Shown here: positions 35,995-49,837 of the stretch, piece by piece
Position numbering within the stretch: position 1 is the first letter of the stretch
Layout of the letters: each line of letters starts with the position of its first letter
Assembly (NCBI GenBank): GCA_046731415.1
Contig: JBKPLD010000089.1
Coordinates: 1 to 51,509 of the forward strand
DNA from: Verrucomicrobiota bacterium
GTDB lineage: Bacteria; Verrucomicrobiota; Verrucomicrobiia; Chthoniobacterales; UBA10450
Length of the DNA: 51,509 bases
Direction of reading: 5' to 3'
Translations under genes and position numbers: made by a program
Notes under the pieces: model-generated
Databases searched by the model: none
The model's input: the letters and a program-made list of their open reading frames with translations, nothing else
What the model was told of the DNA's origin: nothing

Positions 35995-36528
35995 ATGGAT
36001 CCTAGTGAACGCGAACAATATCAGGCGGCCATTCACGGCGATCGAGAGGCATTTGAAATGATCATTCGTCGACATAGCCGGACACTTTTCGCAGTCGCTT
36101 ACGGTATTCTGCAAAACCGCGAAGAAGCAGAGGACGTCGTGCAAGATTCGTTGGTCAAAGCGTGGAAAACGCGCTGGCGGGTCCGCGATCCTGAAAAATT
36201 TCCCGCCTGGTTCGCAACCATCGCGCGACACAAGGCCCACGACGTTTTTCGCAAACGCCGCACTGTTCCTTTGCCGAAACAACTGACGGAAGCATTCGAA
36301 CCAGAAATAGCGGGCGCGAGTCCGTTAGATGAACAATTGCATTCCGCGCTTGCCGCGCTGCCAGAACTTCATCGAGCCGCGCTCACGTTGCGCTATTTCG
36401 AGGAAATGGATTATCGCACCATTGAAAACACTCTTGGTCTGACCAATGGCGCGCTGCGCGGGATTCTCGGTCGCGCCCTCTCTGCCATGCGGAAACAACT
36501 TCGTCCGGCCCTCGTCTCAATGGATTAA
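35995..36528 (+). CDS. ECF-type RNA polymerase sigma-70 factor
   Basis: 177-aa ORF with region 2 'AEDVVQDSLVKAW...FPAWFATIARHKAHDVFRKR' and region 4 'LTLRYFEEMDYRTIENTLGLTNGALRGILGRA'. Confidence 0.88.
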   Translation: MDPSEREQYQAAIHGDREAFEMIIRRHSRTLFAVAYGILQNREEAEDVVQDSLVKAWKTRWRVRDPEKFPAWFATIARHKAHDVFRKRRTVPLPKQLTEAFEPEIAGASPLDEQLHSALAALPELHRAALTLRYFEEMDYRTIENTLGLTNGALRGILGRALSAMRKQLRPALVSMD

Positions 36529-36532
36529 GCGT

Positions 36533-38557
36533 ATGGCAACGATCCACGACGAAATCGACACCTGGGTGACTGCCGAACTGCACGGCGAGCTTTCTGAAAG
36601 CGAACGGAGCGCGCTTCATACGCACCTGGTCGATTGCGCCGCGTGCCGAAAAACCCATCAGGAAATCAAAACTATGAACAAAATTCTGGAAGAAACTCTC
36701 GCACAGGAAAAACCCGATCCGGTGTTTGAACAGCGCATGCTGGCTGGTTTTCGGAGTCGCGTTCCTCAACGAAGCGGACTTGTAAAACTGCTCGTCGATC
36801 TAATGCGCTTTCGCGCAACCCAAATCGCGGCAGTCGCCGCTGTGTTGCTCGGGCTTGTACAGATTGGACGCTTGGTCACTGGCGAAACGTTTAATGTGTC
36901 CCGCGGTCGTGAGCGCGATGCGGGAACGGAATTCGCCGCACCGCAGCCGCCAGAATCACGTCCAAGTCAGGCCGGAGCGCTGAGCAGATCAGAGCAGATC
37001 GGCGGGGGACGACCACAAGACCTTGCCATTGAGGCGCCGGCCCCGCCGGCCGCAGCCAGATCAAAATTCCGCGAAGAAGACAAAGCAGCTGCGACGGTTG
37101 CGCCGGCCAAAACCGCGCAGTCGGAAGCCAGTGATGTCGCAGCGAACGTAGTTCCAGAGAACACTACCGTTGGAAAAGAAGGTGCGGCAAGCACGGTTGA
37201 AACGCCCGCTGGGGAAGCGGCCAATCGCAAACTGATCCGCAACGCAACTGTCGAGCTGGAGATCGTCAGCTTTGATACCGCCGTCCAGAAGATCACTGCA
37301 TTCGCGAACGAAGAACGCGGGTATGTCGCTACGACGGATTCCGAGAAACAGGCAAACGGCAAACTGAAGGGCCAGGTTGTCGTTAAGGTGCTGCCGCAGA
37401 ACCTGGATCACTTTCTCCAAAAGATTCGAAGCCTTGGTGAATTAAAAAACCAGACGCTTGGAACTGAGGACGTGACCAAGGCATATTTCGATACCGATGC
37501 GCGCCTGAAAAACGCGCGCGTTATGGAGCAGCGTTTGATCGAGATGCTCAAGACGAAGACCGGCAAGGTCTCCGATCTGTTGCAGGTGGAAAAAGAACTT
37601 GGGCGTGTGCGCGAAGAGATCGAGAAGATGCAGGGCGAGTTAAAATACTGGGACTCTCAGGTTCAATTCGCCACCGTGACGATTTCGCTGGCAGAAAAGG
37701 ATATGGAAGAACCGGCGGCCTTCCTGTTGAGGGAGCGCGCTCAGCTGGCACTCTACGCGCCCGATGTCGAGAAGATTTACAACGAAATCAAAAGCACGGC
37801 CTCGCCAAAGGTCCAGATTACCAACGCGCAACTAAACCGTGACTATTCCGGCCGCGTCTCTGCGCAGGTGAGCATGTTGATCGCTCCGGAAGAAAGCGAC
37901 GGGGTCATTGGCCGTGTCAAAGCTGCCGGACGCGTGGAAAATTTCCAAACGCAGATCCAACGCATCGCGCAAGGTGGCACCGGCATGTCACCAAATGCCA
38001 GGACCAAGCGTGACAAGGTGGAACTCAACGTCACCATCTCTCGCGAGGAACAGGAGCAAGCTCTCCAGCAAACAAGCTTGCGCATTCGCACGTCGTCCGT
38101 GGACGACAAGGCAAAGCAGCTTCGAGCTCTCACGGAGAAACAAGGCGGACGCATTCGCAGTTCTACCTTCAGTCGCGATCCGGATGGCCGCGCAGTAGCG
38201 AATGTTTCTATTCGCGTACCGATGAAAAATTATGGGGCGCTCATGCAATCATTCGACTCGTTAGGCAAAGTCGAGAACGTCAGTGTGCAACGCCAGGACC
38301 GTACGGATGCGCAGGTCAACGAAGCAAACGCACCGGCGGACGTTTCGATCCAGGTTTACAGTCAGGGCAATATCGTTGCCGAAGAGAGCGGCTTGCTTGC
38401 CACGCTGCGGCGCACACTTGCGCAAAGCGCCGGCGCAATCGCGTGGAGCTTGCGCATGATTGGTGTTGCGGTCGCGTTTCTCGCGCCCTGGGCGATTGCT
38501 TTTGTCGCCGCTATTTGGATCACGCGACGCGCGATTCGCGCGCGATCGAAGCTGTAG
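36533..38557 (+). CDS. membrane anti-sigma factor (zf-HC2) fused to a large periplasmic DUF4349-like/coiled-coil region with a C-terminal TM anchor
   Basis: ATG 36533 lies 4 nt after the sigma stop. It has 'HLVDCAACRKTHQEI' (an HxxxCxxC anti-sigma zinc motif) and a TM helix around 'IAAVAAVLLGLV'. 'RKLIRNATVELEI...' to '...VREEIEKMQGELKYWDSQVQFATVTISL' resembles DUF4349 (from memory). There is a C-terminal TM segment 'MIGVAVAFLAPWAIAFVAAIWI'. Confidence 0.75.
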   Translation: MATIHDEIDTWVTAELHGELSESERSALHTHLVDCAACRKTHQEIKTMNKILEETLAQEKPDPVFEQRMLAGFRSRVPQRSGLVKLLVDLMRFRATQIAAVAAVLLGLVQIGRLVTGETFNVSRGRERDAGTEFAAPQPPESRPSQAGALSRSEQIGGGRPQDLAIEAPAPPAAARSKFREEDKAAATVAPAKTAQSEASDVAANVVPENTTVGKEGAASTVETPAGEAANRKLIRNATVELEIVSFDTAVQKITAFANEERGYVATTDSEKQANGKLKGQVVVKVLPQNLDHFLQKIRSLGELKNQTLGTEDVTKAYFDTDARLKNARVMEQRLIEMLKTKTGKVSDLLQVEKELGRVREEIEKMQGELKYWDSQVQFATVTISLAEKDMEEPAAFLLRERAQLALYAPDVEKIYNEIKSTASPKVQITNAQLNRDYSGRVSAQVSMLIAPEESDGVIGRVKAAGRVENFQTQIQRIAQGGTGMSPNARTKRDKVELNVTISREEQEQALQQTSLRIRTSSVDDKAKQLRALTEKQGGRIRSSTFSRDPDGRAVANVSIRVPMKNYGALMQSFDSLGKVENVSVQRQDRTDAQVNEANAPADVSIQVYSQGNIVAEESGLLATLRRTLAQSAGAIAWSLRMIGVAVAFLAPWAIAFVAAIWITRRAIRARSKL

Positions 38558-38602: not shown

Positions 38603-38671
38603 GAAAAGGGAATCATTCTTGCCCCCTCGGCAAACGAGTCATAGGTTACTTATATTTTCCGGAGGTTGCCG

Positions 38672-40474
38672 ATGAAATCTCAAGGCGGTATCAGCTATAG
38701 CAACGCGGCGGTCGCTGCTTGTCCTAAACATTTGCTCCAATTCGCAGTCGATCAGCGATACGACGATTACACATCGGTCGACCATGCGGTCTGGCGATTC
38801 ATCATGCGCCAGAACATTTTTTTCCTGAAGGAATACGCCCACAAGGTTTATTTCCAGGGTCTTCTCAACACGGGCATTTCGTTCGAGCGCATCCCGCGTA
38901 TCGAAGAAATGAACGATATCCTGGCGAAAATCGATTGGGGCGCGGTGGCAGTAGACGGTTTCATTCCGCCGGCGGCGTTCATGGAGTTTCAAGCCTATAA
39001 GGTGCTCGTGATCGCCTGCGACATGCGGCAAATACATCACATCGAATACACGCCTGCGCCGGACATTGTACACGAAGCCGCAGGCCACGCTCCAATCATT
39101 GTCGATCGTGAATACTCAAATTATTTGCAGCGCTTCGGTGAAGTGGGCGCGAAAGCAATGTCGTCCAGGAAAGATTTCGAGCTGTACCAAGCGATCCGCC
39201 ACTTATCGATCTTGAAGGAGCGCCCGAATGTCGATCCGAAGGAACTCGATGAAGCAACCAAACTGGTGGAACATCGCCAGAAAAATCTCGGCGAACCCTC
39301 GGAGATGGCGCTACTCTCCCGTTTGCACTGGTGGACCGTCGAATATGGGCTCATCGGTACGCTCGAGAATCCAAAAATTTACGGCGCTGGTCTGCTTTCC
39401 TCGATCGGTGAATCGGTCTCGTGCCTCGAACCTGAGGTAAAGAAAATCCCCTACTCTATCGACGCTCAGAACTACGCGTTCGATATCACTACGAGGCAAC
39501 CCCAGCTTTTCGTCTGCCGCGATTTTCAGCATCTCAAGGACGTTCTTGAAGAATTTGCCAGCAAGATGGCGTTCAAAGTTGGCGGACTCGAAGGCATCAA
39601 CAAAGCCGTTGAATGTAATAACACCGCGACCTGTGAATATTCATCCGGTCTCCAGGTCAGCGGGATTTTCACCGAGGTTATCACGGACGAAAATAATTCT
39701 CCCATTTATTTGCGCACAACGGGCAAGACCGCGCTGGCGTTCCAAAGCAAAGAACTCGAAGGGCACGGTATTGATTATCACAAGGACGGTTTTGGTTCGC
39801 CAGTCGGCAAATGGAAACAAACCTCAACGGCGCCAAAGGCGCTCACCAACGATCAACTGCACGCGCTTGGGATTGTCGAGGGTAAGAAAGCGAAGATTGA
39901 GTTTGTCAGCGGCGTAGTTGTGTCAGGAAAGGTTGAGAAAATTTTGCGAGGCGACGGGAAACTGTTGTTGATCACATTCTCAAACTGCAAGGCCAAGTAC
40001 CGTGACCAAGTCCTCTTCCAGCCCGAGTGGGGTGTTTACGACATGGCCGTTGGCGAACGAATCAGTTCGGTATTTAACGGAGCAGCAGATAAGGACGCCT
40101 ACAATCAGGTGGCGCTCGTTCCAAAGGAACGCACCATCAAGATTCCTTCTACGCCGGAGCGCGAGCGACTCGAGAATCTTTACGCTCAGGTCCGCAAGAT
40201 TCGCGAGAGCAAAACCGGTTATGAACGGCTTGGCGAAATTTGGGAGACACAGCAAGCCGAACATCCCGAAGACTGGCTGTTGTCGATGGAAATTTTTGAA
40301 ATCCTCGACACAACCGACCAACAGCCGGAATTGAAAGCCAGGATCGAGAAGTTTCTGAACGAGAAAAAATCGAAGAGCAAAGATCTGGCGACGCTGATCA
40401 GTTGGGGGTTCCGCCTGGTGAAATACCATAAGAAGCCGGAATACCAGTCTGCGTTGCACGGCTCGTCGAAATAG
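38672..40474 (+). CDS. phhA: aromatic amino acid hydroxylase (phenylalanine-4-hydroxylase-like), long form with a ~300-aa C-terminal extension
   Basis: ATG 38672 is preceded by GGAGG (38661-38665). It has 'PDIVHEAAGHAPII' (2-His iron ligands), 'HWWTVEYGLIG' (Glu ligand) and 'IYGAGLLSSIGES'. Residues ~300-600 have no family I recognise. Confidence 0.8.
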   Translation: MKSQGGISYSNAAVAACPKHLLQFAVDQRYDDYTSVDHAVWRFIMRQNIFFLKEYAHKVYFQGLLNTGISFERIPRIEEMNDILAKIDWGAVAVDGFIPPAAFMEFQAYKVLVIACDMRQIHHIEYTPAPDIVHEAAGHAPIIVDREYSNYLQRFGEVGAKAMSSRKDFELYQAIRHLSILKERPNVDPKELDEATKLVEHRQKNLGEPSEMALLSRLHWWTVEYGLIGTLENPKIYGAGLLSSIGESVSCLEPEVKKIPYSIDAQNYAFDITTRQPQLFVCRDFQHLKDVLEEFASKMAFKVGGLEGINKAVECNNTATCEYSSGLQVSGIFTEVITDENNSPIYLRTTGKTALAFQSKELEGHGIDYHKDGFGSPVGKWKQTSTAPKALTNDQLHALGIVEGKKAKIEFVSGVVVSGKVEKILRGDGKLLLITFSNCKAKYRDQVLFQPEWGVYDMAVGERISSVFNGAADKDAYNQVALVPKERTIKIPSTPERERLENLYAQVRKIRESKTGYERLGEIWETQQAEHPEDWLLSMEIFEILDTTDQQPELKARIEKFLNEKKSKSKDLATLISWGFRLVKYHKKPEYQSALHGSSK

Positions 40475-42066: not shown

Positions 42067-42915
42067 TTAGATTCTTTCGTCTTTGAAGTGCCGTTTGCCT
42101 TTCAGCGCCTTTGCGTATTCGTCCTTGCTCAGAATATTCTCATCGAGTTGCATGTCGGTGCGAAGAAAGTTTTGGAACCAATTTTCGATTCGCTGTCGAT
42201 CTTTGAGCACTTCCTCCGTAATGTAATTGGCGTCGATGTTAATGCAGATTGCGCCAACGATTCCGAATTCTTTTCGTTTGATTGGAATCGTGGTGCATTT
42301 GAATTTTCGCGCTCCGATGTTCAGCTCGTAATTCAATTTGTCTTCGTTCAACAGCTGTCGGCGTTTGAGATCAATTAGCAGATTCGTTGTACCATCGCGT
42401 AAATGGCGCCCCGTGACATTGTTTTCGAGCGTGATCAACGAGTGCGCCGGATCTGCCAGGTTGTGTAGCAAAATCTCGATTCCGGTATTCGGAAACGATT
42501 TCCCAATCAAACGCACAATCCGCGCGTAGTTTTCGAGAAATTCCTGTGTGTCGTCGGCGATCGTTTTGCCGTCGTATTTCTCGAACAACTGCGCGTAAAC
42601 CTTTTGTTCAGCTGGTTCGAGTTGTGCGCGCACGTTATTTTGTTCTCCGATGAAAATGAGCTGCCGTGCGGCGGTGTGATCCCGGTTCTTGAGGAAGTAA
42701 TGCATGCCCAACCGAAAATCTTTCAGGCTGAATTCTCCGAAGTTTTCGCGCGTGACCGTGAATGGATAGAAGTCGTAATCTTCCAGATTCCGGCCAAATT
42801 TGCGGCGTTGTTCCTTGTACTTGCCCCAAACAAACCCTATCGTCAGAAAGAGCACCGACACAATGATCGACGCGACGACGTTGACGCTGAGTTCGCTTTG
42901 CAGGGCTTTGATCAT
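42067..42915 (-). CDS. membrane-anchored YheO-like PAS-domain protein (candidate sensor/regulator)
   Basis: 282-aa ORF with the N-terminal TM 'VVASIIVSVLFLTIGFVW'. 'EILLHNLADPAHSLITLENNVTGRHLRDGTTNL' and 'GIVGAICINID' resemble the YheO-type PAS domain (from memory). I saw no obvious C-terminal HTH. Confidence 0.5.
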   Translation of the reverse strand: MIKALQSELSVNVVASIIVSVLFLTIGFVWGKYKEQRRKFGRNLEDYDFYPFTVTRENFGEFSLKDFRLGMHYFLKNRDHTAARQLIFIGEQNNVRAQLEPAEQKVYAQLFEKYDGKTIADDTQEFLENYARIVRLIGKSFPNTGIEILLHNLADPAHSLITLENNVTGRHLRDGTTNLLIDLKRRQLLNEDKLNYELNIGARKFKCTTIPIKRKEFGIVGAICINIDANYITEEVLKDRQRIENWFQNFLRTDMQLDENILSKDEYAKALKGKRHFKDERI

Positions 42916-43043: not shown

Positions 43044-43736
43044 TTACAGATTTCCGGCCAAGCTGGAAATACTGATATTCTCCAGTGTAACGGCTGCGGG
43101 ACGAGAGAGCGCGTATGCCACGGCACTGGCGACATCCTCTGGCGAGATCATCTTATGTCTAGGCCATTTCCCTTCGATCTGAGTCCAGATGTCGGTGTCT
43201 GTCGCGGCGGGGTAAACGTTAATCACTCGTATCTTGCGGTCGCGCAATTCTTCGCGCACGCATTGCGAGAATCCTTCAAGCGCGAATTTGCTCATGCAAT
43301 AAGCGCTCCAGTTGGCGAACCCAGTCTTCGCCGCGATGGAAAGTATGTTGACGACGCTGGAGCCAGGCGGCATCGCCGGGGCAAGGTGCTGCATTAACAT
43401 AAACGGCGCGGTGATATTGACTCCCACCGTTTGCTCCCATTCAACCGCTGTGATTTCACAAAAGGGCTTCACGACCGCGATGCCTGCATTGTTAACGAGC
43501 AGATCCACGGGCTTCGTTCCAACCTGCTCAATGAGGTCGGAAACACCGGACGGGACAGCAAGGTCATGGATCAGGCGAACCACACGCCCGCAATGCTGCT
43601 TCACTGCATTGCAAACGTCGGCTAAAGCAACGGTATCGCGTCCGTGGAGAAGCAATTCGACATTCGGTGCCGCCAGTTTCTCGGCAATTGCGCGACCAAT
43701 TCCGCGACTCGCCCCGGTGATTAGATAGCGTGTCAT
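43044..43736 (-). CDS. short-chain dehydrogenase/reductase; by context a candidate sepiapterin reductase or dihydropteridine reductase
   Basis: 230-aa ORF with 'LITGASRGIGRAIAEKL', 'NNAGI' and 'YCMSKFA' (Tyr-x3-Lys). The pterin role is inferred only from the neighbouring genes. Confidence 0.8.
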   Translation of the reverse strand: MTRYLITGASRGIGRAIAEKLAAPNVELLLHGRDTVALADVCNAVKQHCGRVVRLIHDLAVPSGVSDLIEQVGTKPVDLLVNNAGIAVVKPFCEITAVEWEQTVGVNITAPFMLMQHLAPAMPPGSSVVNILSIAAKTGFANWSAYCMSKFALEGFSQCVREELRDRKIRVINVYPAATDTDIWTQIEGKWPRHKMISPEDVASAVAYALSRPAAVTLENISISSLAGNL

Positions 43737-43831: not shown

Positions 43832-45043
43832 TTACATTCGCCGCAAGGTAAACCGGTTATTGGCTGTTTCCCATAAGCGCAGCCTAACGAGTTGTTGATT
43901 CACGCGATTGTCGATCTTCGGCCAGAGCGCGCGGACGATGTTCTCCCCGGTCGAAGGCGCCTTGCGGAAATCTTCTGTTTCCAGATCGAGATGCCGATCC
44001 CGCCACGGTTCCAACGATTTCTGTATGGCGTTCCTCAACGCAACAAAATCGTAGAGCGTTCCGCTGCGCTCATCGTAGTCGCCGCCGATTGTAGTTTCCG
44101 TCAGATAACCATGGCCATGACCCAGCGGATTGTTGCACTTGCCATAAAGCTTTGCGTTTTCGGCATCCGACAGAGTCGCGGCGTACAAACGGTGTGCAGC
44201 ATAAAATCCCATCTGCATTCCAAGAAACACCCTTCCGTTCTTCCAAACCTCGGCAAAAAAATCTGCGCGCTCGTGCAGGCGCACGCGATCCAGCAGCGCC
44301 ATCGAGCTCGCACGTTGGTAGATGTAACCCGCCAAACTCTCCGTCGTGATGGGACGGTTGGCCAAACCAGCTACATCGTCATTGAGATAACGGTGGTCAA
44401 GCTCGTCGGTTAAACGACGCAAACAAGCATCGATCGCGTCGTAACGGACCAGCGGTTGGACAGTGAAGGCTTTCGCCGATCGGTAGGTCAGTCGAACGCG
44501 ATAATTATGCCCGTGAATGGAAGTGGCCGATCCAAACATACGCGCGTTTTCATCAGCGTTTAACCGGGGCGACATCGTTTTGCGTGCCGCTGAAAATTCG
44601 AACCAGTAATTCGCCTCGCAGGCGCCGTTGGAGTAAAAAGTCGCGCTACGCTCGGGCGACTCAGTCAGATGACAGGCAACGAGCTTAGCATTGTCGTCGG
44701 AAAACGAAGAGGCAACATCGACATACAGTTGCTGCGCGATATTTTCGGCGGTCGGAGGAACGTCACGGAAGGAAGGATTGTCTTCGTTCAGGAACTTGTG
44801 ATCAAATCGCTGCCGCACAATTTTGCCGGCACGCTCCTTGATTTCGCTGATGTTAATCAGCATTCCCGTATTCGAATCAACGGGACCGGCGAACACAAAA
44901 TAGGCTGCGAAATTGCGACCGCTCCCGTGGCGCGCGTTCGTTTCGGGACCAAAGGCGGCCAGATTTTCGTTGTCGCTCCACTGGGCGACATGCAAGCGGC
45001 GAGAAGCCGAAAATTCGAGACGCTTGCTGACTGTCAGGAGCAT
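43832..45043 (-). CDS. 6-pyruvoyl-tetrahydropterin synthase family protein with three tandem PTPS/T-fold repeats
   Basis: 403-aa ORF with three ~134-aa repeats. Repeat 1 has FSASRRL...FGPETNARHGSGRNF...DHKFLNED...TAEN. Repeat 2 has FSAARK...FGSATSIHGHNY...DHRYLNDD...TTES. Repeat 3 has FYAAHRLY...YGKCNNPLGHGHGY...RDRHLDLE...TGEN. Confidence 0.8.
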   Translation of the reverse strand: MLLTVSKRLEFSASRRLHVAQWSDNENLAAFGPETNARHGSGRNFAAYFVFAGPVDSNTGMLINISEIKERAGKIVRQRFDHKFLNEDNPSFRDVPPTAENIAQQLYVDVASSFSDDNAKLVACHLTESPERSATFYSNGACEANYWFEFSAARKTMSPRLNADENARMFGSATSIHGHNYRVRLTYRSAKAFTVQPLVRYDAIDACLRRLTDELDHRYLNDDVAGLANRPITTESLAGYIYQRASSMALLDRVRLHERADFFAEVWKNGRVFLGMQMGFYAAHRLYAATLSDAENAKLYGKCNNPLGHGHGYLTETTIGGDYDERSGTLYDFVALRNAIQKSLEPWRDRHLDLETEDFRKAPSTGENIVRALWPKIDNRVNQQLVRLRLWETANNRFTLRRM

Positions 45044-45271: not shown

Positions 45272-45901
45272 ATGAAACATATGGGATGGCGGCAGCGATT
45301 GTTCAAAAGCACGAGAGGGAAAATTCTCGACCTCCTGCGAACACGAGAGCGAACAGTGAACGAACTCGCAGCAGAGTTGCGGCTGACCGATAACGCCGTG
45401 CGAGCGCACCTTGCCAGCCTCGAGCGCGATAGACTCGTGTCCCAGTCAGGTCTCAAACGAGGCGTTCGCAAACCGCACACGACTTATTCTCTTGGGCCGG
45501 AAGCCGAACAACTGTTTCCGAAGGCATACGGGCGGCTGGTGTCGCTTCTCATGTCAATATTCTCATGGCAGATTAAGCCAGGAAACCTGCGCGCCGGGAT
45601 GCGCTCCGCTGGGCGAGCAGTAGCCCGGGAACACCTGCCTGGGTTGAAGGGCAAAACCCGTCGGCAAAGAATCGATGCTGCACTACGCATTCTCAAGGAA
45701 CTCGGAGGTGCGGCCACTTTTCGTGAAGAAGACGGCAAGCACTTTATCCATGGCAACGGCTGCCCGATTGCTGCGGCTACGGCGAACCATCCCGAAGCAT
45801 GCTTGCTTGCGGAATCATTGCTCACCAGCGTCATCGGCTCGCCCGTAAAAGAACGTTGTATCCGGGGACCGACGCCCTCCTGCCGGTTCGAGGTGAAATA
45901 G
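45272..45901 (+). CDS. ArsR-family winged-helix transcriptional regulator with a Cys-containing C-terminal domain
   Basis: 209-aa ORF with 'TRGKILDLLRTRERTVNELAAELRLTDNAVRAHLASLERDRLV' (an ArsR-type HTH) and C-terminal 'GNGCPIAAATANHPEAC...PSCRF'. Confidence 0.8.
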   Translation: MKHMGWRQRLFKSTRGKILDLLRTRERTVNELAAELRLTDNAVRAHLASLERDRLVSQSGLKRGVRKPHTTYSLGPEAEQLFPKAYGRLVSLLMSIFSWQIKPGNLRAGMRSAGRAVAREHLPGLKGKTRRQRIDAALRILKELGGAATFREEDGKHFIHGNGCPIAAATANHPEACLLAESLLTSVIGSPVKERCIRGPTPSCRFEVK

Positions 45902-45977
45902 GTATTCCTTCGCCCGTTTGGCGGAACGAAAGACATCCGTTCATTGCGCCAGTTTCGTAATTTAGAATACAATAAAT

Positions 45978-45997
45978 AGTCAAATAATTAATTGACT
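45978..45997. promoter_or_regulatory. 20-bp palindrome AGTCAAA-N6-ATTGACT, second candidate operator, upstream of the doxX-like gene
   Basis: agtcaaataattaattgact has the same 7-6-7 architecture as 45224-45243 (6/7 in the right arm). It ends 33 nt before ATG 46030. Confidence 0.45.
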
Positions 45998-46029
45998 TAT
46001 TACGATAGAATCAACCACCATTGCCAGCC

Positions 46030-46437
46030 ATGAATACAACCGATAACCAATCACACGCCGCGACGAATTCGCCTTCATATCAAGCATATTGGATCCTTCA
46101 TTTTGGATTCACCGTTGCCCCGATCCTCGCCGGGTTGGACAAGTTTTTCCACCTGCTGACGAATTGGGACCAGTACCTTCCTGGAGTAGTAGCGAATGCG
46201 TCGCCAATAGCGCCGCACACGCTGATGCTTATTGTTGGCGTGATCGAGATTGTGGCCGGACTTGGAGTTTGGCTTAAACCACGGATTTTCGCCTACGTCG
46301 TGGCCGCCTGGCTTGCGGTGATCATAGTAAATCTGTTACTGATCCCCGGGTACTTCGATGTGGCGCTGCGGGACTTTGGACTATTACTTGGCGCCCTTGC
46401 CCTGGCTCGATTGAGCCAGCAGTTCTCGCGCGGCTAA
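46030..46437 (+). CDS. DoxX-like small integral membrane protein
   Basis: The ORF runs 46021 (TTG)-46437, with ATG at 46030. It has four hydrophobic helices, and 'ILHFGFTVAPILAGLDKFF' and 'GVIEIVAGLGVWLKP' are DoxX-like. Confidence 0.65.
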   Translation: MNTTDNQSHAATNSPSYQAYWILHFGFTVAPILAGLDKFFHLLTNWDQYLPGVVANASPIAPHTLMLIVGVIEIVAGLGVWLKPRIFAYVVAAWLAVIIVNLLLIPGYFDVALRDFGLLLGALALARLSQQFSRG

Positions 46438-46467: not shown

Positions 46468-46662
46468 GGAAGTCAGGCAGCTTGTCCACCACAGGACGGA
46501 TTCGCCGTGGCGAACCTGACCGGACGGACGGCATCTTGCCGTCCATCTGTAAAGCTGGAAGCTTTACTTCCCCCGGCCGGCGGGTTTCCAGCCTGCCGAG
46601 CCTATTGCCGGTTCGACAAGCAAGATGCTTGTCGGTCGAGACAAGCTGGAAGCATGTCTTCC
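46468..46662 (+). repeat. family C structured repeat, copy 2 (195 bp, with extra internal hairpins)
   Basis: The sequence is ggaagtcaggcagcttgtcc...gtggcgaacctgaccggacggacggcatcttgccgtccat...cgacaagcaagatgcttgtcg...ctggaagcatgtcttcc. It has the same orientation as copy 1 and abuts the folE stop codon. Confidence 0.8.
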
Positions 46663-47291
46663 TAATCTTTCAACAGCGAAAGGAACTCAGACCGGGTGCG
46701 CGCGTCGTCCTTGAAAACACCGAGCAGACAGGATGTTTTCATGACTGAGTTCTGCTTTTCAACACCTCGCATCATCATGCAGAGATGCTTAGCCTCCACC
46801 ACCACCGCCACGCCAGAGGGCTCAAGGCAATTCATGAGTGACTCGGCAATCTGCGTGGTGAGATTCTCCTGAATCTGCAAGCGCCGGGCAAAAACGTCGA
46901 CAATACGCGCAACCTTGGAAAGGCCGATTACCTTTCCGTTTGGAATGTACGCCACGTGCGCGCGGCCAATGAACGGAAGCAGATGATGCTCGCATAGCGA
47001 ATAAAGTTCGATGTCTTTTACCAGAATGATCTCGCTCGCGCTGGACTCGAACACAGCGTCGTTAATGATCTCATCGAGATCCTGGCGATAACCTTGCGTG
47101 AGAAATTCCAAAGCATGTGCCGCTCGATCTGGAGTCCGACGCAGCCCTTCGCGGTCGACGTCTTCGCCAATGCTGTGAAGTAATTCCCGATACGCTTTCG
47201 CGATCTTATCGAGGTCCTTTTCCTGGAGTCGATTGTTCTCGCGCGCGAAGGGCTCCTCAACATCGAGATCGGAATTGCGTCGTTGAATCAT
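46662..47291 (-). CDS. folE: GTP cyclohydrolase I (FolE type IA)
   Basis: 209-aa ORF with '[22 protein letters not shown]' and '[15 protein letters not shown]'. Confidence 0.95.
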
Positions 47292-47416: not shown

Positions 47417-48601
47417 CTAATCGAGCCAGCTCTGAGGATATTTTGGATCATCCAACGCCAGCGACTCTTCGGTCAGATCAAGCGTGTGCTGGGTGTCGAA
47501 CATCACGGCGAGCTCTTCCGTGCGCGTTGCATTCCTGCTTGCCAGGATCGTCCCCGGGTGTGGCCCGTGCGGAATCCCGCGAGGATGCAGCGTAATCGAA
47601 CCGCTCTCAATTCCGCGCCGTGAACCAAAATTCCCGCGCACGTAAAAGAGAACCTCATCAGCTTCCACGTTGTCGTGCACCCACGGAATTCTTACCGCTT
47701 CTGGATGCGTATCGAGCATCCGCGGCGCAAAAGTGCAAACTACATAACCGCGAATTTCAAAAGTCTGATGAATCGGTGGCGGCTGATGGACCGTACCGGT
47801 GATCGGCTCGAAATCCTGTGCGTTGAACGTGAACGGGTAGAGATAACCATCCCAGCCGACCGCGTCGAACGGATGATGAGCCAGCGTGACCCGCGTGAGT
47901 CGTGCCCCATCTTTTACGAGAACATCGGCGTCTTCCTCCTTATCGACCGTAATTATTTCGCGAGGGCCGTGAAGGTCGCGCTCGGAGTACGGCGCGCCCA
48001 TTTTGATTTGCCCTTCGTGGTTCAGGTAGCGCTGCGGGATCCGAACAGGGCCGACTGATTCGAGAATGAGATAGTCCTCCTCTTCAATCTGGTCCGGCAC
48101 GAGCCTGTAGGTGATTCCGCGCGGTATGACGATGTAATCCTCGGCGCGGTACGGTAGTTTGCCGAAGACCGATTCCATTACGCCGCCGCCGTGAAACACG
48201 AAAATGATTTCGTCGGCGCCGCCGTTTTTGTAATATTGAAATTTGTCGTACGCCTTCGCTGGCCTGCCGCGATAGGCGATTACATCTTGATTAAACAACA
48301 TGGGGACGCGTCCCGTGTAGAGATCGCCGCGCCGCGGGATATTTGCGGTCTTCAAATGGTGATGTCGCAGCGGGCTGTCAGTCACCTTTTTCGGTTCCCA
48401 GTGTTTGAGTAACTCGACATTGCGCACGCGCGTAGGCGGCCGCAGGTGATACATAATCGAGTACGCCTCATCAAATCCCTGTGTTGTGAAGACGTGCTCA
48501 TAGGCGATGCCTTCGTTCTTGTACGAAGGTGTCGATCCGTTGCGATGGAACCAGATATGATGTTTCCTCGGAATCTCTCCGAGTCTTTGATAATACGGCA
48601 T
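47417..48601 (-). CDS. hmgA: homogentisate 1,2-dioxygenase (short ~390-aa form)
   Basis: 394-aa ORF with the N-terminus 'MPYYQRLGEIPRKHHIWF' and a cupin region 'ADEVLFYVRGNFGSRRGIESGSITLHPRGIPHGPHPG'. GGAGG lies 8 nt upstream of the ATG. Confidence 0.9.
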   Translation of the reverse strand: MPYYQRLGEIPRKHHIWFHRNGSTPSYKNEGIAYEHVFTTQGFDEAYSIMYHLRPPTRVRNVELLKHWEPKKVTDSPLRHHHLKTANIPRRGDLYTGRVPMLFNQDVIAYRGRPAKAYDKFQYYKNGGADEIIFVFHGGGVMESVFGKLPYRAEDYIVIPRGITYRLVPDQIEEEDYLILESVGPVRIPQRYLNHEGQIKMGAPYSERDLHGPREIITVDKEEDADVLVKDGARLTRVTLAHHPFDAVGWDGYLYPFTFNAQDFEPITGTVHQPPPIHQTFEIRGYVVCTFAPRMLDTHPEAVRIPWVHDNVEADEVLFYVRGNFGSRRGIESGSITLHPRGIPHGPHPGTILASRNATRTEELAVMFDTQHTLDLTEESLALDDPKYPQSWLD

Positions 48602-48618: not shown

Positions 48619-49758
48619 TTACAAATTACCTCTGGCTTCTTGTTCGCGTTCAATGGCTTCGAAGAGCGCCTTGAAATTGCCTTTGCCAAAGCTCTTTGCG
48701 CCTTTGCGTTGAATAATTTCGAAAAAGAGCGTGGGACGGTCCTCTACCGGTTTGGTAAATATTTGCAGCAAATAACCTTCATCATCGCGATCAACAAGGA
48801 TGCCCAGGCGCTTTAGAGCGTTGAGCTCTTCATCGATATGACCCACACGATCGAGCAACGTTTCATAGTAAGTCGAAGGAATCTGCAAGAATTCGACGCC
48901 GCGTTTTTGCAGGCCCGTTACCGTTTCGATGATGTTGTTTGTCGCCATGGCGATGTGCTGCACACCTTCGCCGTCATAAAACTCAAGATATTCTTCCACC
49001 TGCGATTTCTTTTTACCTTCTGCTGGCTCATTGATCGGAAACTTCACGAATCCGTTCCCATTGCTCATTACCTTGCTCATCAGTGCAGAGTACTCGGTGG
49101 AAATATCTTTATCGTCGAAAGTGAGAATGTTCCGAAATCCCATCACCTCTTCGTAAAACTTTACCCATGGATTCATCTGACCCCATCCAACATTGCCCAC
49201 GCAATGATCGACATGTTGCAGTCCGGTCTCAGGCGGGTTGTAGGCCGATTCCCATCTGCGGAACCCAGGCAGGAACGGGCCGCGGTAATTGTCGCGCTCA
49301 ACGAAAAGATGAACGACATCGCCATAGGTGTGGATGCCGCTTACGACAACCTCGCCATGCTCATCTGACAGTGTCTTGGGCTCCATGTAACTCTTTCCGC
49401 CACGCTTCGTGGTTTCTTTCCAGGCAGAGGTAGCGTCCCCCACGCGCAACGCCAGCGTCTTTACACCATCTCCATGCTTGTAAATGTGATCCGCGATCGG
49501 GTTCTTCGCTCGGATCGGCGTCGTTAGCACGAACGTGATTTTGTTCTGTCGAATCGCGTAGCTCGCTCGATCTCGTACGCCAGTCTCAGGCCCAGAGTAG
49601 GCAAGGCTCTGAAATCCAAAGGCTGTTTTGTAAAAATTCGCCGCCTGTTTGGCGTTACCGACGTAGAACTCAACGTAATCGGTGCCGTGCAGCGGCAGAA
49701 AATCTTCCTCGATTACCGGTGCTTTCTTAGTTTTTGGAGCAGCAATTGTCGTTGGCAT
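48619..49758 (-). CDS. hppD: 4-hydroxyphenylpyruvate dioxygenase
   Basis: The ORF runs 48619-49797. ATG 49758 is preceded by GGGAGG. It has 'HGTDYVEFYVGNAKQAANFY', 'GVQHIAMATNNI' and the C-terminus 'FFEIIQRKGAKSFGKGNFKALFEAIEREQEARGNL'. Confidence 0.93.
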   Translation of the reverse strand: MPTTIAAPKTKKAPVIEEDFLPLHGTDYVEFYVGNAKQAANFYKTAFGFQSLAYSGPETGVRDRASYAIRQNKITFVLTTPIRAKNPIADHIYKHGDGVKTLALRVGDATSAWKETTKRGGKSYMEPKTLSDEHGEVVVSGIHTYGDVVHLFVERDNYRGPFLPGFRRWESAYNPPETGLQHVDHCVGNVGWGQMNPWVKFYEEVMGFRNILTFDDKDISTEYSALMSKVMSNGNGFVKFPINEPAEGKKKSQVEEYLEFYDGEGVQHIAMATNNIIETVTGLQKRGVEFLQIPSTYYETLLDRVGHIDEELNALKRLGILVDRDDEGYLLQIFTKPVEDRPTLFFEIIQRKGAKSFGKGNFKALFEAIEREQEARGNL

Positions 49759-49837
49759 AATGACCTCCCGAATCTCTGGCGCTGAATACGCCTCCAACTA
49801 TAAGTTCGGCGCCCACGCGTCGCAAGGTTGCTTGCTT

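Follow-up and report, generated by a model that had tools for sequence, protein, structure and literature searches.

The DNA examined here, a stretch of 51,509 nucleotides from a Verrucomicrobiota bacterium (Chthoniobacterales, UBA10450; GenBank assembly GCA_046731415.1, contig JBKPLD010000089.1) that is referred to below as the window, carries on its minus strand a gene for a protein of 403 residues that consists of three consecutive units of the 6-pyruvoyl-tetrahydropterin synthase (PTPS) family. The gene occupies positions 43832..45043 in the open reading frame listing, begins with an ATG start codon and ends with a stop codon at 43832-43834. The three units, here termed R1, R2 and R3, have kept different parts of the family's active site. 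With moderate confidence we interpret the protein as a PTPS-II-type synthase of a tetrahydrobiopterin-type cofactor pathway, in which the subunits of a trimer have been fused into one chain and the active sites would form across two chains, between R3 of one and R1 of the other (R1'-R3, the prime denoting the partner chain).

The whole protein matched the Pfam family PF01242 in three stretches (E 6e-62; 207.4 bits, with the curated cutoff at 22.4). The thirds were also scanned singly, and R1 (residues 1-138; 44630..45043), R2 (residues 139-270; 44234..44629) and R3 (residues 271-403; 43835..44233), all on the minus strand, gave E values of 3.8e-21, 6.7e-18 and 2.7e-21, respectively, with 65-76 bits each and coverage of positions 2-119 of the 121 positions in the model. 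Compared with one another by BLASTP, the thirds were 22-26% identical (E 5e-8, 2e-11 and 2e-5); a self-comparison was among the checks proposed in a first-pass annotation of this DNA. Identity to human PTPS was 40% for R1, 31% for R2 and 35% for R3 (E 9e-25, 9e-14 and 7e-29). Sequence matches to the PDB entries 3i2b, 2g64 and 1b66 (E 1e-21 to 3e-20) were confined to residues 272-401, that is, to R3. By sequence comparison the protein is an old triplication, with a repeat signal far above chance.

The structure of the single chain was predicted with AlphaFold2 from an alignment of 39 sequences. The model (pLDDT 96.9, pTM 0.93) predicts a single rigid body with twelve strands, in which the order beta1, helical insertion, beta2, two helices, beta3, beta4 is repeated three times; the PTPS-family T-fold topology, a four-stranded antiparallel sheet with two antiparallel helices, is thus found in each unit. 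Foldseek searches of the PDB returned single-unit PTPS and QueD chains only, and each unit superposed on human, rat or Caenorhabditis elegans PTPS with TM scores of 0.90-0.93 and a root-mean-square deviation of 1.3-1.4 A over 135 columns. These searches found no PDB chain that spans more than one unit with a sensible deviation and no solved triple T-fold structure. The division into three tandem T-fold units that the first-pass annotation had proposed is therefore borne out by the per-third family matches, the three-fold pattern of the model and the structural superpositions alike.

The barrel of the PTPS trimer is said to arise from the pairing of terminal strands of adjacent subunits. In the model, the turns between units, from beta4 to the following beta1, are only four residues long (138-141 and 268-271), and they would represent covalent versions of the beta4-beta1' contact between subunits of a PTPS trimer. 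In the canonical barrel it is likewise the N- and C-terminal strands of neighbouring subunits that pair (PMC9894224). Since the hairpins mimic this contact, one chain should be able to close a 12-stranded barrel, as judged from the topology and the pTM of the model.

Catalytic columns were defined by alignment to H24, C43, H49, H51, D89, H90 and E134 of human PTPS. At these columns R1 has R15, T35, S41, R43, D81, H82 and E128; R2 has R154, A173, H177, H179, D216, H217 and E258; and R3 has H284, C303, H309, H311, R348, D349 and E392. All three zinc-ligand histidines are thus found in R3 (H284, H309 and H311), two of three in R2 and none in R1, while the Asp-His dyad is present in R1 (D81-H82) and R2 (D216-H217) and is replaced in R3 by R348-D349. 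The motif strings on which the first-pass annotation had relied lie at residues 11 (FSASRRL), 39 (HGSGRNF) and 81 (DHKFLNED) in R1, at 177 (HGHNY) and 216 (DHRYLNDD) in R2, and at 280 (FYAAHRL), 302 (KCNNPLGHGHGY) and 348 (RDRHLDLE) in R3. The column alignment agrees with what had been read from them, namely that the metal and cysteine block is complete solely in R3, that R1 has lost its pocket, that R2 retains HGHNY and lacks the first histidine and the cysteine, and that the dyad is intact in R1 and R2 and altered in R3. The residues of the RDRH string in R3 were also considered as a shifted dyad; this was rejected, as H351 aligns at an Asn/Tyr position two past the dyad and is variable in relatives.

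On the minus strand of the window, the R3 residues are encoded at 44192..44194 (His284, the first zinc ligand), 44105..44140 (the block K302-Y313, KCNNPLGHGHGY, with Cys303 and the zinc ligands H309 and H311) and 43868..43870 (Glu392, the counterpart of the pterin-anchoring Glu), and the degenerate counterpart of its dyad, R348-D349, at 43997..44002. The R1 dyad, proposed to complete the R3 pocket of a partner chain, lies at 44798..44803. In R2, the two zinc-ligand-type histidines of H177-G178-H179 lie at 44507..44515 and the dyad D216-H217 at 44393..44398.

Conservation was measured in 43 relatives, drawn from five or more phyla, that share less than 80% identity with one another and 36-78% with the window protein, as the frequency of the commonest residue in each column, for which the background was about 0.63. 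H284, C303, H309, H311 and E392 of R3 were 100% conserved, as were D81 and H82 of R1. The R1 pocket columns varied, with the commonest residue at 0.30-0.58, and so did the R3 dyad columns (0.26 and 0.40), all of them below background. In R2, R154, H177, H179, H217, T233, T234, E235 and E258 were 100% conserved, D216 was conserved at 95% and position 173 was always A or S. Full conservation of every motif on careful alignment, which the first-pass annotation had named as evidence to the contrary, was not what the R1 pocket and the R3 dyad displayed. Because the R3 pocket and the R1 dyad are invariant while the R1 pocket and the R3 dyad exceed background variability, the complementary decay of pocket and dyad is, on this comparative evidence, under selection and no quirk of one sequence. 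Conservation shows a division of labour after the fusion, with a pocket in R3 that marks it, by its sequence, as the catalytic unit, a dyad next to a decayed pocket in R1, and a Cys-less pocket together with a dyad in R2.

Beyond this set, the R1 Asp was invariant in all 39 aligned triples. Among 34 representative distant triples (24-50% identity), the R3 pocket was complete in 33 and the R1 Asp-His was kept in 29, even where R2 had become unrecognisable; in other distant triples R2 is a complete unit with H-C-H-H and D-H. The units are positional orthologues between triple subfamilies, a pattern that points to a single origin of these sequences.

The triple form is widespread. In metagenomes, more than 100 proteins of 403-420 residues align with the entire query at 83-89% identity; the names of some assign them to Candidatus Udaeobacter or Verrucomicrobia. 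Related loci were found from a 9-sequence alignment, with one genome scanned per species, and at least 50 species-level genomes gave one uninterrupted tblastn match to residues 1-402; these belong to Verrucomicrobiota (Chthoniobacterales/Udaeobacter), Ignavibacteriales, Zixibacteria, Thermoanaerobaculaceae and a Bryobacteraceae bin. Anaerolineae carry shorter triples of about 360 residues. Exhaustive searching of 1.8 billion cluster representatives with HMMER returned 2510 matches, and the best 150 of these included 34 proteins of 355-425 residues and 58 of 255-300 residues, the latter mostly two-unit proteins and in a few cases fragments of triples. The locus in the bin labelled Bryobacteraceae (JBJMGJ010000342.1) has Verrucomicrobiota-like synteny at 61-87% protein identity; as the bin carries an Acidobacteriota label, the locus was either transferred horizontally or binned wrongly.

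Two-unit PTPS proteins of about 270 residues were found in Chloroflexaceae, Herpetosiphon, Roseiflexus and Poribacteria, for example in Herpetosiphon aurantiacus DSM 785 (CP000875, 8001-8798). Their C-terminal unit always has H-C-H-H and is orthologous to R3. Their N-terminal unit is often without the Cys, and in some it reads H-E-H-H, recalling the ExxHGH signature of PTPS-III. A database survey of the kind suggested by the first-pass annotation thus finds triples and doubles in abundance across several phyla.

It had also been suggested that three adjacent PTPS genes might have been joined by sequencing or assembly error, or that the gene might be a decaying tandem array, in which case internal stops or starts would be expected in relatives. 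Nothing was found in favour of this possibility, which we regard as practically negligible and reject. The reading frame is uninterrupted in the window and, from residue 1 to 402 in one piece, in the 50 or more independent genomes; the metagenome proteins are 403-420 residues long, the linkers are four-residue hairpins inside a confidently predicted fold, and the 45 invariant columns in the 43 relatives indicate strong purifying selection.

The function was approached through the signature of the pocket and the neighbouring genes. In this family the signature of PTPS-II is Cx5HGH, that of QueD (PTPS-I) is Cx3HGH and that of PTPS-III is ExxHGH (PMC5041015). R3 reads C303-NNPLG-H309GH311, which is Cx5HGH, the PTPS-II (tetrahydrobiopterin-type) signature, and neither of the other two. 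In R2 the HGH is preceded by A-x3, without a Cys.

The gene is accompanied by a GTP cyclohydrolase I gene, folE (46662..47291, minus strand; TIGR00063, 257.6 bits, cutoff 181.6), whose product would supply dihydroneopterin triphosphate, and, directly downstream, by a gene for a short-chain dehydrogenase/reductase (SDR; 43044..43736, minus strand; adh_short, E 3e-45). The SDR aligns over its full length with sepiapterin reductase of Chlorobium tepidum (2bd0, E 5e-23) and is a candidate for a last-step enzyme of the sepiapterin reductase type. Among 80 related loci, folE neighbours the PTPS gene in nearly all and the SDR gene adjoins it in most; the trio as such is kept in nearly all, in triple and double forms alike, and occurs in Verrucomicrobiota, Zixibacteria, Ignavibacteriales, Thermoanaerobaculaceae, Anaerolineae, Chloroflexaceae, Herpetosiphon and Poribacteria. 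A likely user of the cofactor is a long-form pterin-dependent aromatic amino acid (phenylalanine) hydroxylase of 602 residues (38666..40474, plus strand; PRK14056, 803 bits; PDB 7vgm, 592 residues, E 7e-159), which is adjacent in most triple-PTPS loci. It is about twice the size of the classical bacterial PhhA.

Two further genes on the minus strand belong to the same context. A gene for 4-hydroxyphenylpyruvate dioxygenase (HPPD; 48619-49797), identified by scan and synteny, would act in tyrosine breakdown after phenylalanine hydroxylation. Between it and folE lies a gene for a homogentisate-dioxygenase-like protein of 394 residues (47417-48601) with weak Pfam matches (HgmA_N, E 1e-7; HgmA_C, E 9e-6), which is 79-97% identical in Verrucomicrobiota loci. 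The protein is probably a divergent cupin of the homogentisate dioxygenase type and would act in the same breakdown of tyrosine.

From the Cx5HGH in R3 together with the conserved folE-PTPS-SDR cluster by a phenylalanine hydroxylase it follows that the triple protein is probably a 6-pyruvoyl-tetrahydropterin synthase (EC 4.2.3.12). Its most likely role, as suggested by signature and conserved gene context, would be to catalyse the second step in a pathway that makes a tetrahydrobiopterin-type cofactor and serves phenylalanine catabolism. In this pathway FolE would produce dihydroneopterin triphosphate, the triple PTPS would convert it to 6-pyruvoyl-tetrahydropterin, and the adjacent SDR would reduce the latter, providing the neighbouring phenylalanine hydroxylase with a tetrahydrobiopterin-type cofactor; the output of this hydroxylase would feed the HPPD/homogentisate route.

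How pocket and dyad would meet in such a protein depends on where the dyad acts. In rat PTPS the dyad is reportedly drawn from a second subunit, described as 'His89 from B' and as 'Cys A42, Asp B88, His B89'. In QueD2 and in Escherichia coli QueD the histidine of the triad is supplied by a protomer of the opposite ring (PMC9894224). Since the dyad acts from the opposite ring in PTPS and QueD, complementation is expected between stacked chains and not within one pseudo-trimer. The earlier proposal of a covalent pseudo-trimer stands in so far as the decay is complementary and the composite sites would be fewer; the completion of those sites inside one pseudo-trimer, which it implied, is the part we would replace.

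In a D3 hexamer the pocket-dyad pairs are reciprocal and each is related by one two-fold axis. Fused chains keep one of these axes, so that one unit pairs with itself and the other two pair with each other. Of the three pairings that are possible, only the one with R2 self-paired and R1'-R3 cross-paired joins the pocket that is always complete with the dyad that is nearly always so; the same arrangement also joins the decayed R1 pocket with the decayed R3' dyad. Complementation between two head-to-head pseudo-trimers, with the R3 pocket served by the R1' dyad, is on this analysis the most likely arrangement.

The assembly that we propose would have arisen by an ancient intragenic triplication that fused the three subunits of a canonical trimer into one chain. 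Three T-fold units joined by hairpins would close one 12-stranded barrel per chain, and two chains would stack head-to-head with R2 at the two-fold axis. The R3 pocket, with the zinc ligands H284, H309 and H311, the base C303 and the anchor E392, would be completed by Asp81-His82 from R1 of the partner; R2 would pair with R2' and the R1 pocket would face the R3' dyad. The dimer would then contain two complete sites, as against six in a canonical hexamer, along with two Cys-less conserved R2/R2' sites, probably binding a ligand or metal, and two dead R1/R3' sites.

One alternative is a monomeric pseudo-trimer, in which R1 and R2 are mere scaffolds that close the barrel, R3 works without a dyad in trans or with a residue in cis, and the Asp-His of R1 and R2 is conserved for purely structural reasons. 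It agrees with the self-contained rigid body predicted by AlphaFold2, and five divergent triple subfamilies, in which the R1 His is absent (DR, DF or DG), still hold H-C-H-H in R3. A structural role should, however, have guarded all three dyads alike, and the R3 dyad is among the most variable columns while that of R1 is invariant; a passive scaffold also leaves the invariant R2 pocket (R154, H177, H179, E258 and the TTE motif) unexplained, and known members of the family draw the triad histidine from the opposite ring. We consider this alternative unlikely. Another alternative sees in R2 a second active site with a different chemistry, in which H177 and H179 together with His217 of the partner would hold a metal, Arg154 would stand in place of the first His, and the protein would carry out two steps or make a different pterin. 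All residues of the R2 pocket are strictly conserved, including the substitutions at R154 and A/S173, and a model for such a site exists in AbQueD2 of Acinetobacter baumannii, where the catalytic zinc is held by the two HGH histidines and the triad histidine of the opposite protomer, not by the N-terminal histidine (PMC9894224). The position of the general base holds A or S, never Cys or Glu, the scheme is without biochemical precedent, and a non-catalytic site that binds pterin or a dimer-bridging metal also explains the conservation of R2; we consider a second catalytic function quite unlikely. A more far-reaching version of the non-catalytic interpretation may be put forward tentatively, in which R1, R2 and R3 would have become obligately different after the triplication and would form the first single-chain self-closing T-fold barrel, with R3 as the catalytic pocket, R1 as the donor of a dyad in trans, and R2 as a regulatory or assembly site on the two-fold axis of the dimer. 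On this possible but doubtful extension, the ligand of R2 would be a pterin or a metal that bridges the dimer (held by H177 and H179 with the partner's H217, as in QueD2), and its Cys-less but strictly conserved site would be without counterpart among known PTPS enzymes.

With regard to function, the alternative is that the protein is a QueD of queuosine/preQ0 synthesis, as publicly annotated, that has merely been triplicated. Close relatives are named '6-carboxytetrahydropterin synthase' by NCBI, the whole protein scores 108.9 bits on the QueD model TIGR03367 against a cutoff of 89.25, and R2 weakly matches the QueD chains of E. coli and Pseudomonas aeruginosa. The per-unit scores on TIGR03367 are just 39.4, 42.9 and 35.4 bits, all under the cutoff, and the whole protein passes because three partial unit matches add up. 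The only unit with a Cys has five residues between Cys and HGH, which does not fit the CxxxHGH of QueD, and the strong PDB match to animal PTPS, obtained for R3 only (E 1e-21), is far better than that of R3 to QueD. The flanking genes are those for FolE, the SDR, phenylalanine hydroxylase, HPPD and the homogentisate-dioxygenase-like protein, the scanned genes from 38.6 to 49.8 kb include no queC, queE or queF, and the folE-PTPS-SDR trio recurs across phyla. A QueD function is accordingly very unlikely and was set aside on the Cys-HGH spacing and the gene context; the public name is probably an over-annotation.

Besides the public name and the TIGR03367 score of the whole protein, several observations weigh against the interpretation of the protein as a fused, cross-complementing biopterin-pathway synthase. 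The R1'-R3 pairing rule is not universal, because the five divergent subfamilies are without the R1 His. In the two-unit relatives, the correlation between the pocket of the N-terminal unit and the dyad of the C-terminal unit is inconsistent, and in triples the co-occurrence of the R2 pocket and the R2 dyad may merely reflect the decay of whole units. Closure of the barrel, dimerisation and the R1'-R3 pairing are inferences and not observations, and for rat PTPS the assignment of His89 to the other trimer is the one reportedly given by Nar 1994 and Ploom 1999, taken together with the QueD2 paper. In the gene context, the SDR is not diagnostic of sepiapterin reductase, 2bd0 being its seventh PDB match behind generic SDRs, and tblastn found no pterin-4a-carbinolamine dehydratase gene in the window. 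Such a gene stands beside the cluster in six loci, which belong to some Ignavibacteriales, Zixibacteria and Anaerolineae.

Other genes surround the cluster. In Udaeobacter-type loci, an ArsR-type helix-turn-helix regulator (209 residues) and a hydrophobic open reading frame of 138 residues lie between folE and the PTPS gene in divergent orientation (45272-46437 in the window, plus strand); the latter had no Pfam match. The loci of Zixibacteria and Ignavibacteriales have folE directly next to the PTPS gene. Just past the SDR gene, a gene for a YheO-like PAS-domain protein (282 residues; 42067-42915, minus strand) is conserved in Verrucomicrobiota loci and may encode a regulator of the cluster; in the locus JBJMGJ010000342.1 the shared synteny comprises the genes for HPPD, the homogentisate-dioxygenase-like protein, FolE, PTPS, the SDR and YheO. 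At 35995-38557 on the plus strand, a gene for a sigma factor of the extracytoplasmic function type (177 residues) is followed by one for a 703-residue protein that carries DUF4349 and a zf-HC2 anti-sigma motif; the two form a typical sigma/anti-sigma pair, unrelated to the triple PTPS.

One-unit PTPS and QueD proteins and two-unit T-fold proteins are already known, and the chemistry and the pathway proposed here are ordinary. What is new is the three-unit architecture with its division of labour among the units, which occurs widely among uncultured bacteria of soil and sediment. Literature searches, in which the term 'PTPS' was confounded by protein tyrosine phosphatases, found no paper on a three-unit PTPS or on any three-unit T-fold chain; the first-pass annotation, likewise, was aware of no described triple-fused PTPS. 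The architecture is nevertheless abundant in databases.

The triple PTPS would offer a clean natural case of how evolution proceeds in a homo-oligomer that shares active sites between its subunits once these have been fused. A symmetric hexamer with six sites would have become an asymmetric assembly with the pocket and its helper dyad in different units, and the pieces that decay would tell which units face each other. The T-fold superfamily, in which the known chains have only one or two units, would also gain a member with three units that closes on itself. Thousands of entries named QueD in databases are more likely enzymes of the biopterin pathway, and a tetrahydrobiopterin-type cofactor that serves phenylalanine catabolism appears to be made by Udaeobacter-type Verrucomicrobiota, which are abundant in soil, and by several further phyla.

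Among known systems, the animal PTPS enzymes (rat 1B66 and 1GTQ, human 3I2B, C. elegans 2G64; PTPS-II of COG0720) have the same T-fold unit and share with R3 the zinc histidine triad, the Cys of the Cx5HGH signature and the anchoring Glu; the expected reaction and the partner enzymes, GTP cyclohydrolase I and a reductase, are alike as well. The animal enzyme is a homohexamer of 140-residue chains with six identical sites, whereas the triple protein has three units in 403 residues, a complete pocket only in R3, and dyad and pocket in separate units. E. coli QueD (4NTM/4NTK) and A. baumannii QueD2 (7V0F) have family and fold in common with the triple PTPS and use a triad histidine of the opposite ring, and the zinc site of QueD2, formed by HGH and a histidine in trans, is a possible model for R2. 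They differ in being single-unit chains in rings of 2x3 or 2x4, in their Cx3HGH or Cx4HGH and in their queuosine gene context.

Tandem T-fold units within one chain, as in the triple PTPS, are found in the bimodular proteins urate oxidase, type II QueF and GTP cyclohydrolase IB. Bimodular QueF divides its catalytic elements between the two halves of the chain. These proteins have two units instead of three, no single bimodular chain can close the ring, and superposition of urate oxidase and GTP cyclohydrolase IB on the model by Foldseek was poor (root-mean-square deviation 16-18 A); bimodular QueF is discussed in PMC5372742. The two-unit PTPS proteins of Chloroflexaceae, H. aurantiacus DSM 785, Roseiflexus and Poribacteria share with the triple form the folE/SDR context and an R3-type C-terminal unit, but at about 270 residues they cannot close a three-unit ring alone, and the pocket of their N-terminal unit is often still complete. 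The PTPS of Chlorobium is a single-unit protein. In Chlorobium tepidum, the route to a biopterin-type cofactor consists of GTP cyclohydrolase I, PTPS and an SDR (2BD0), as is proposed here for the triple protein and its neighbours.

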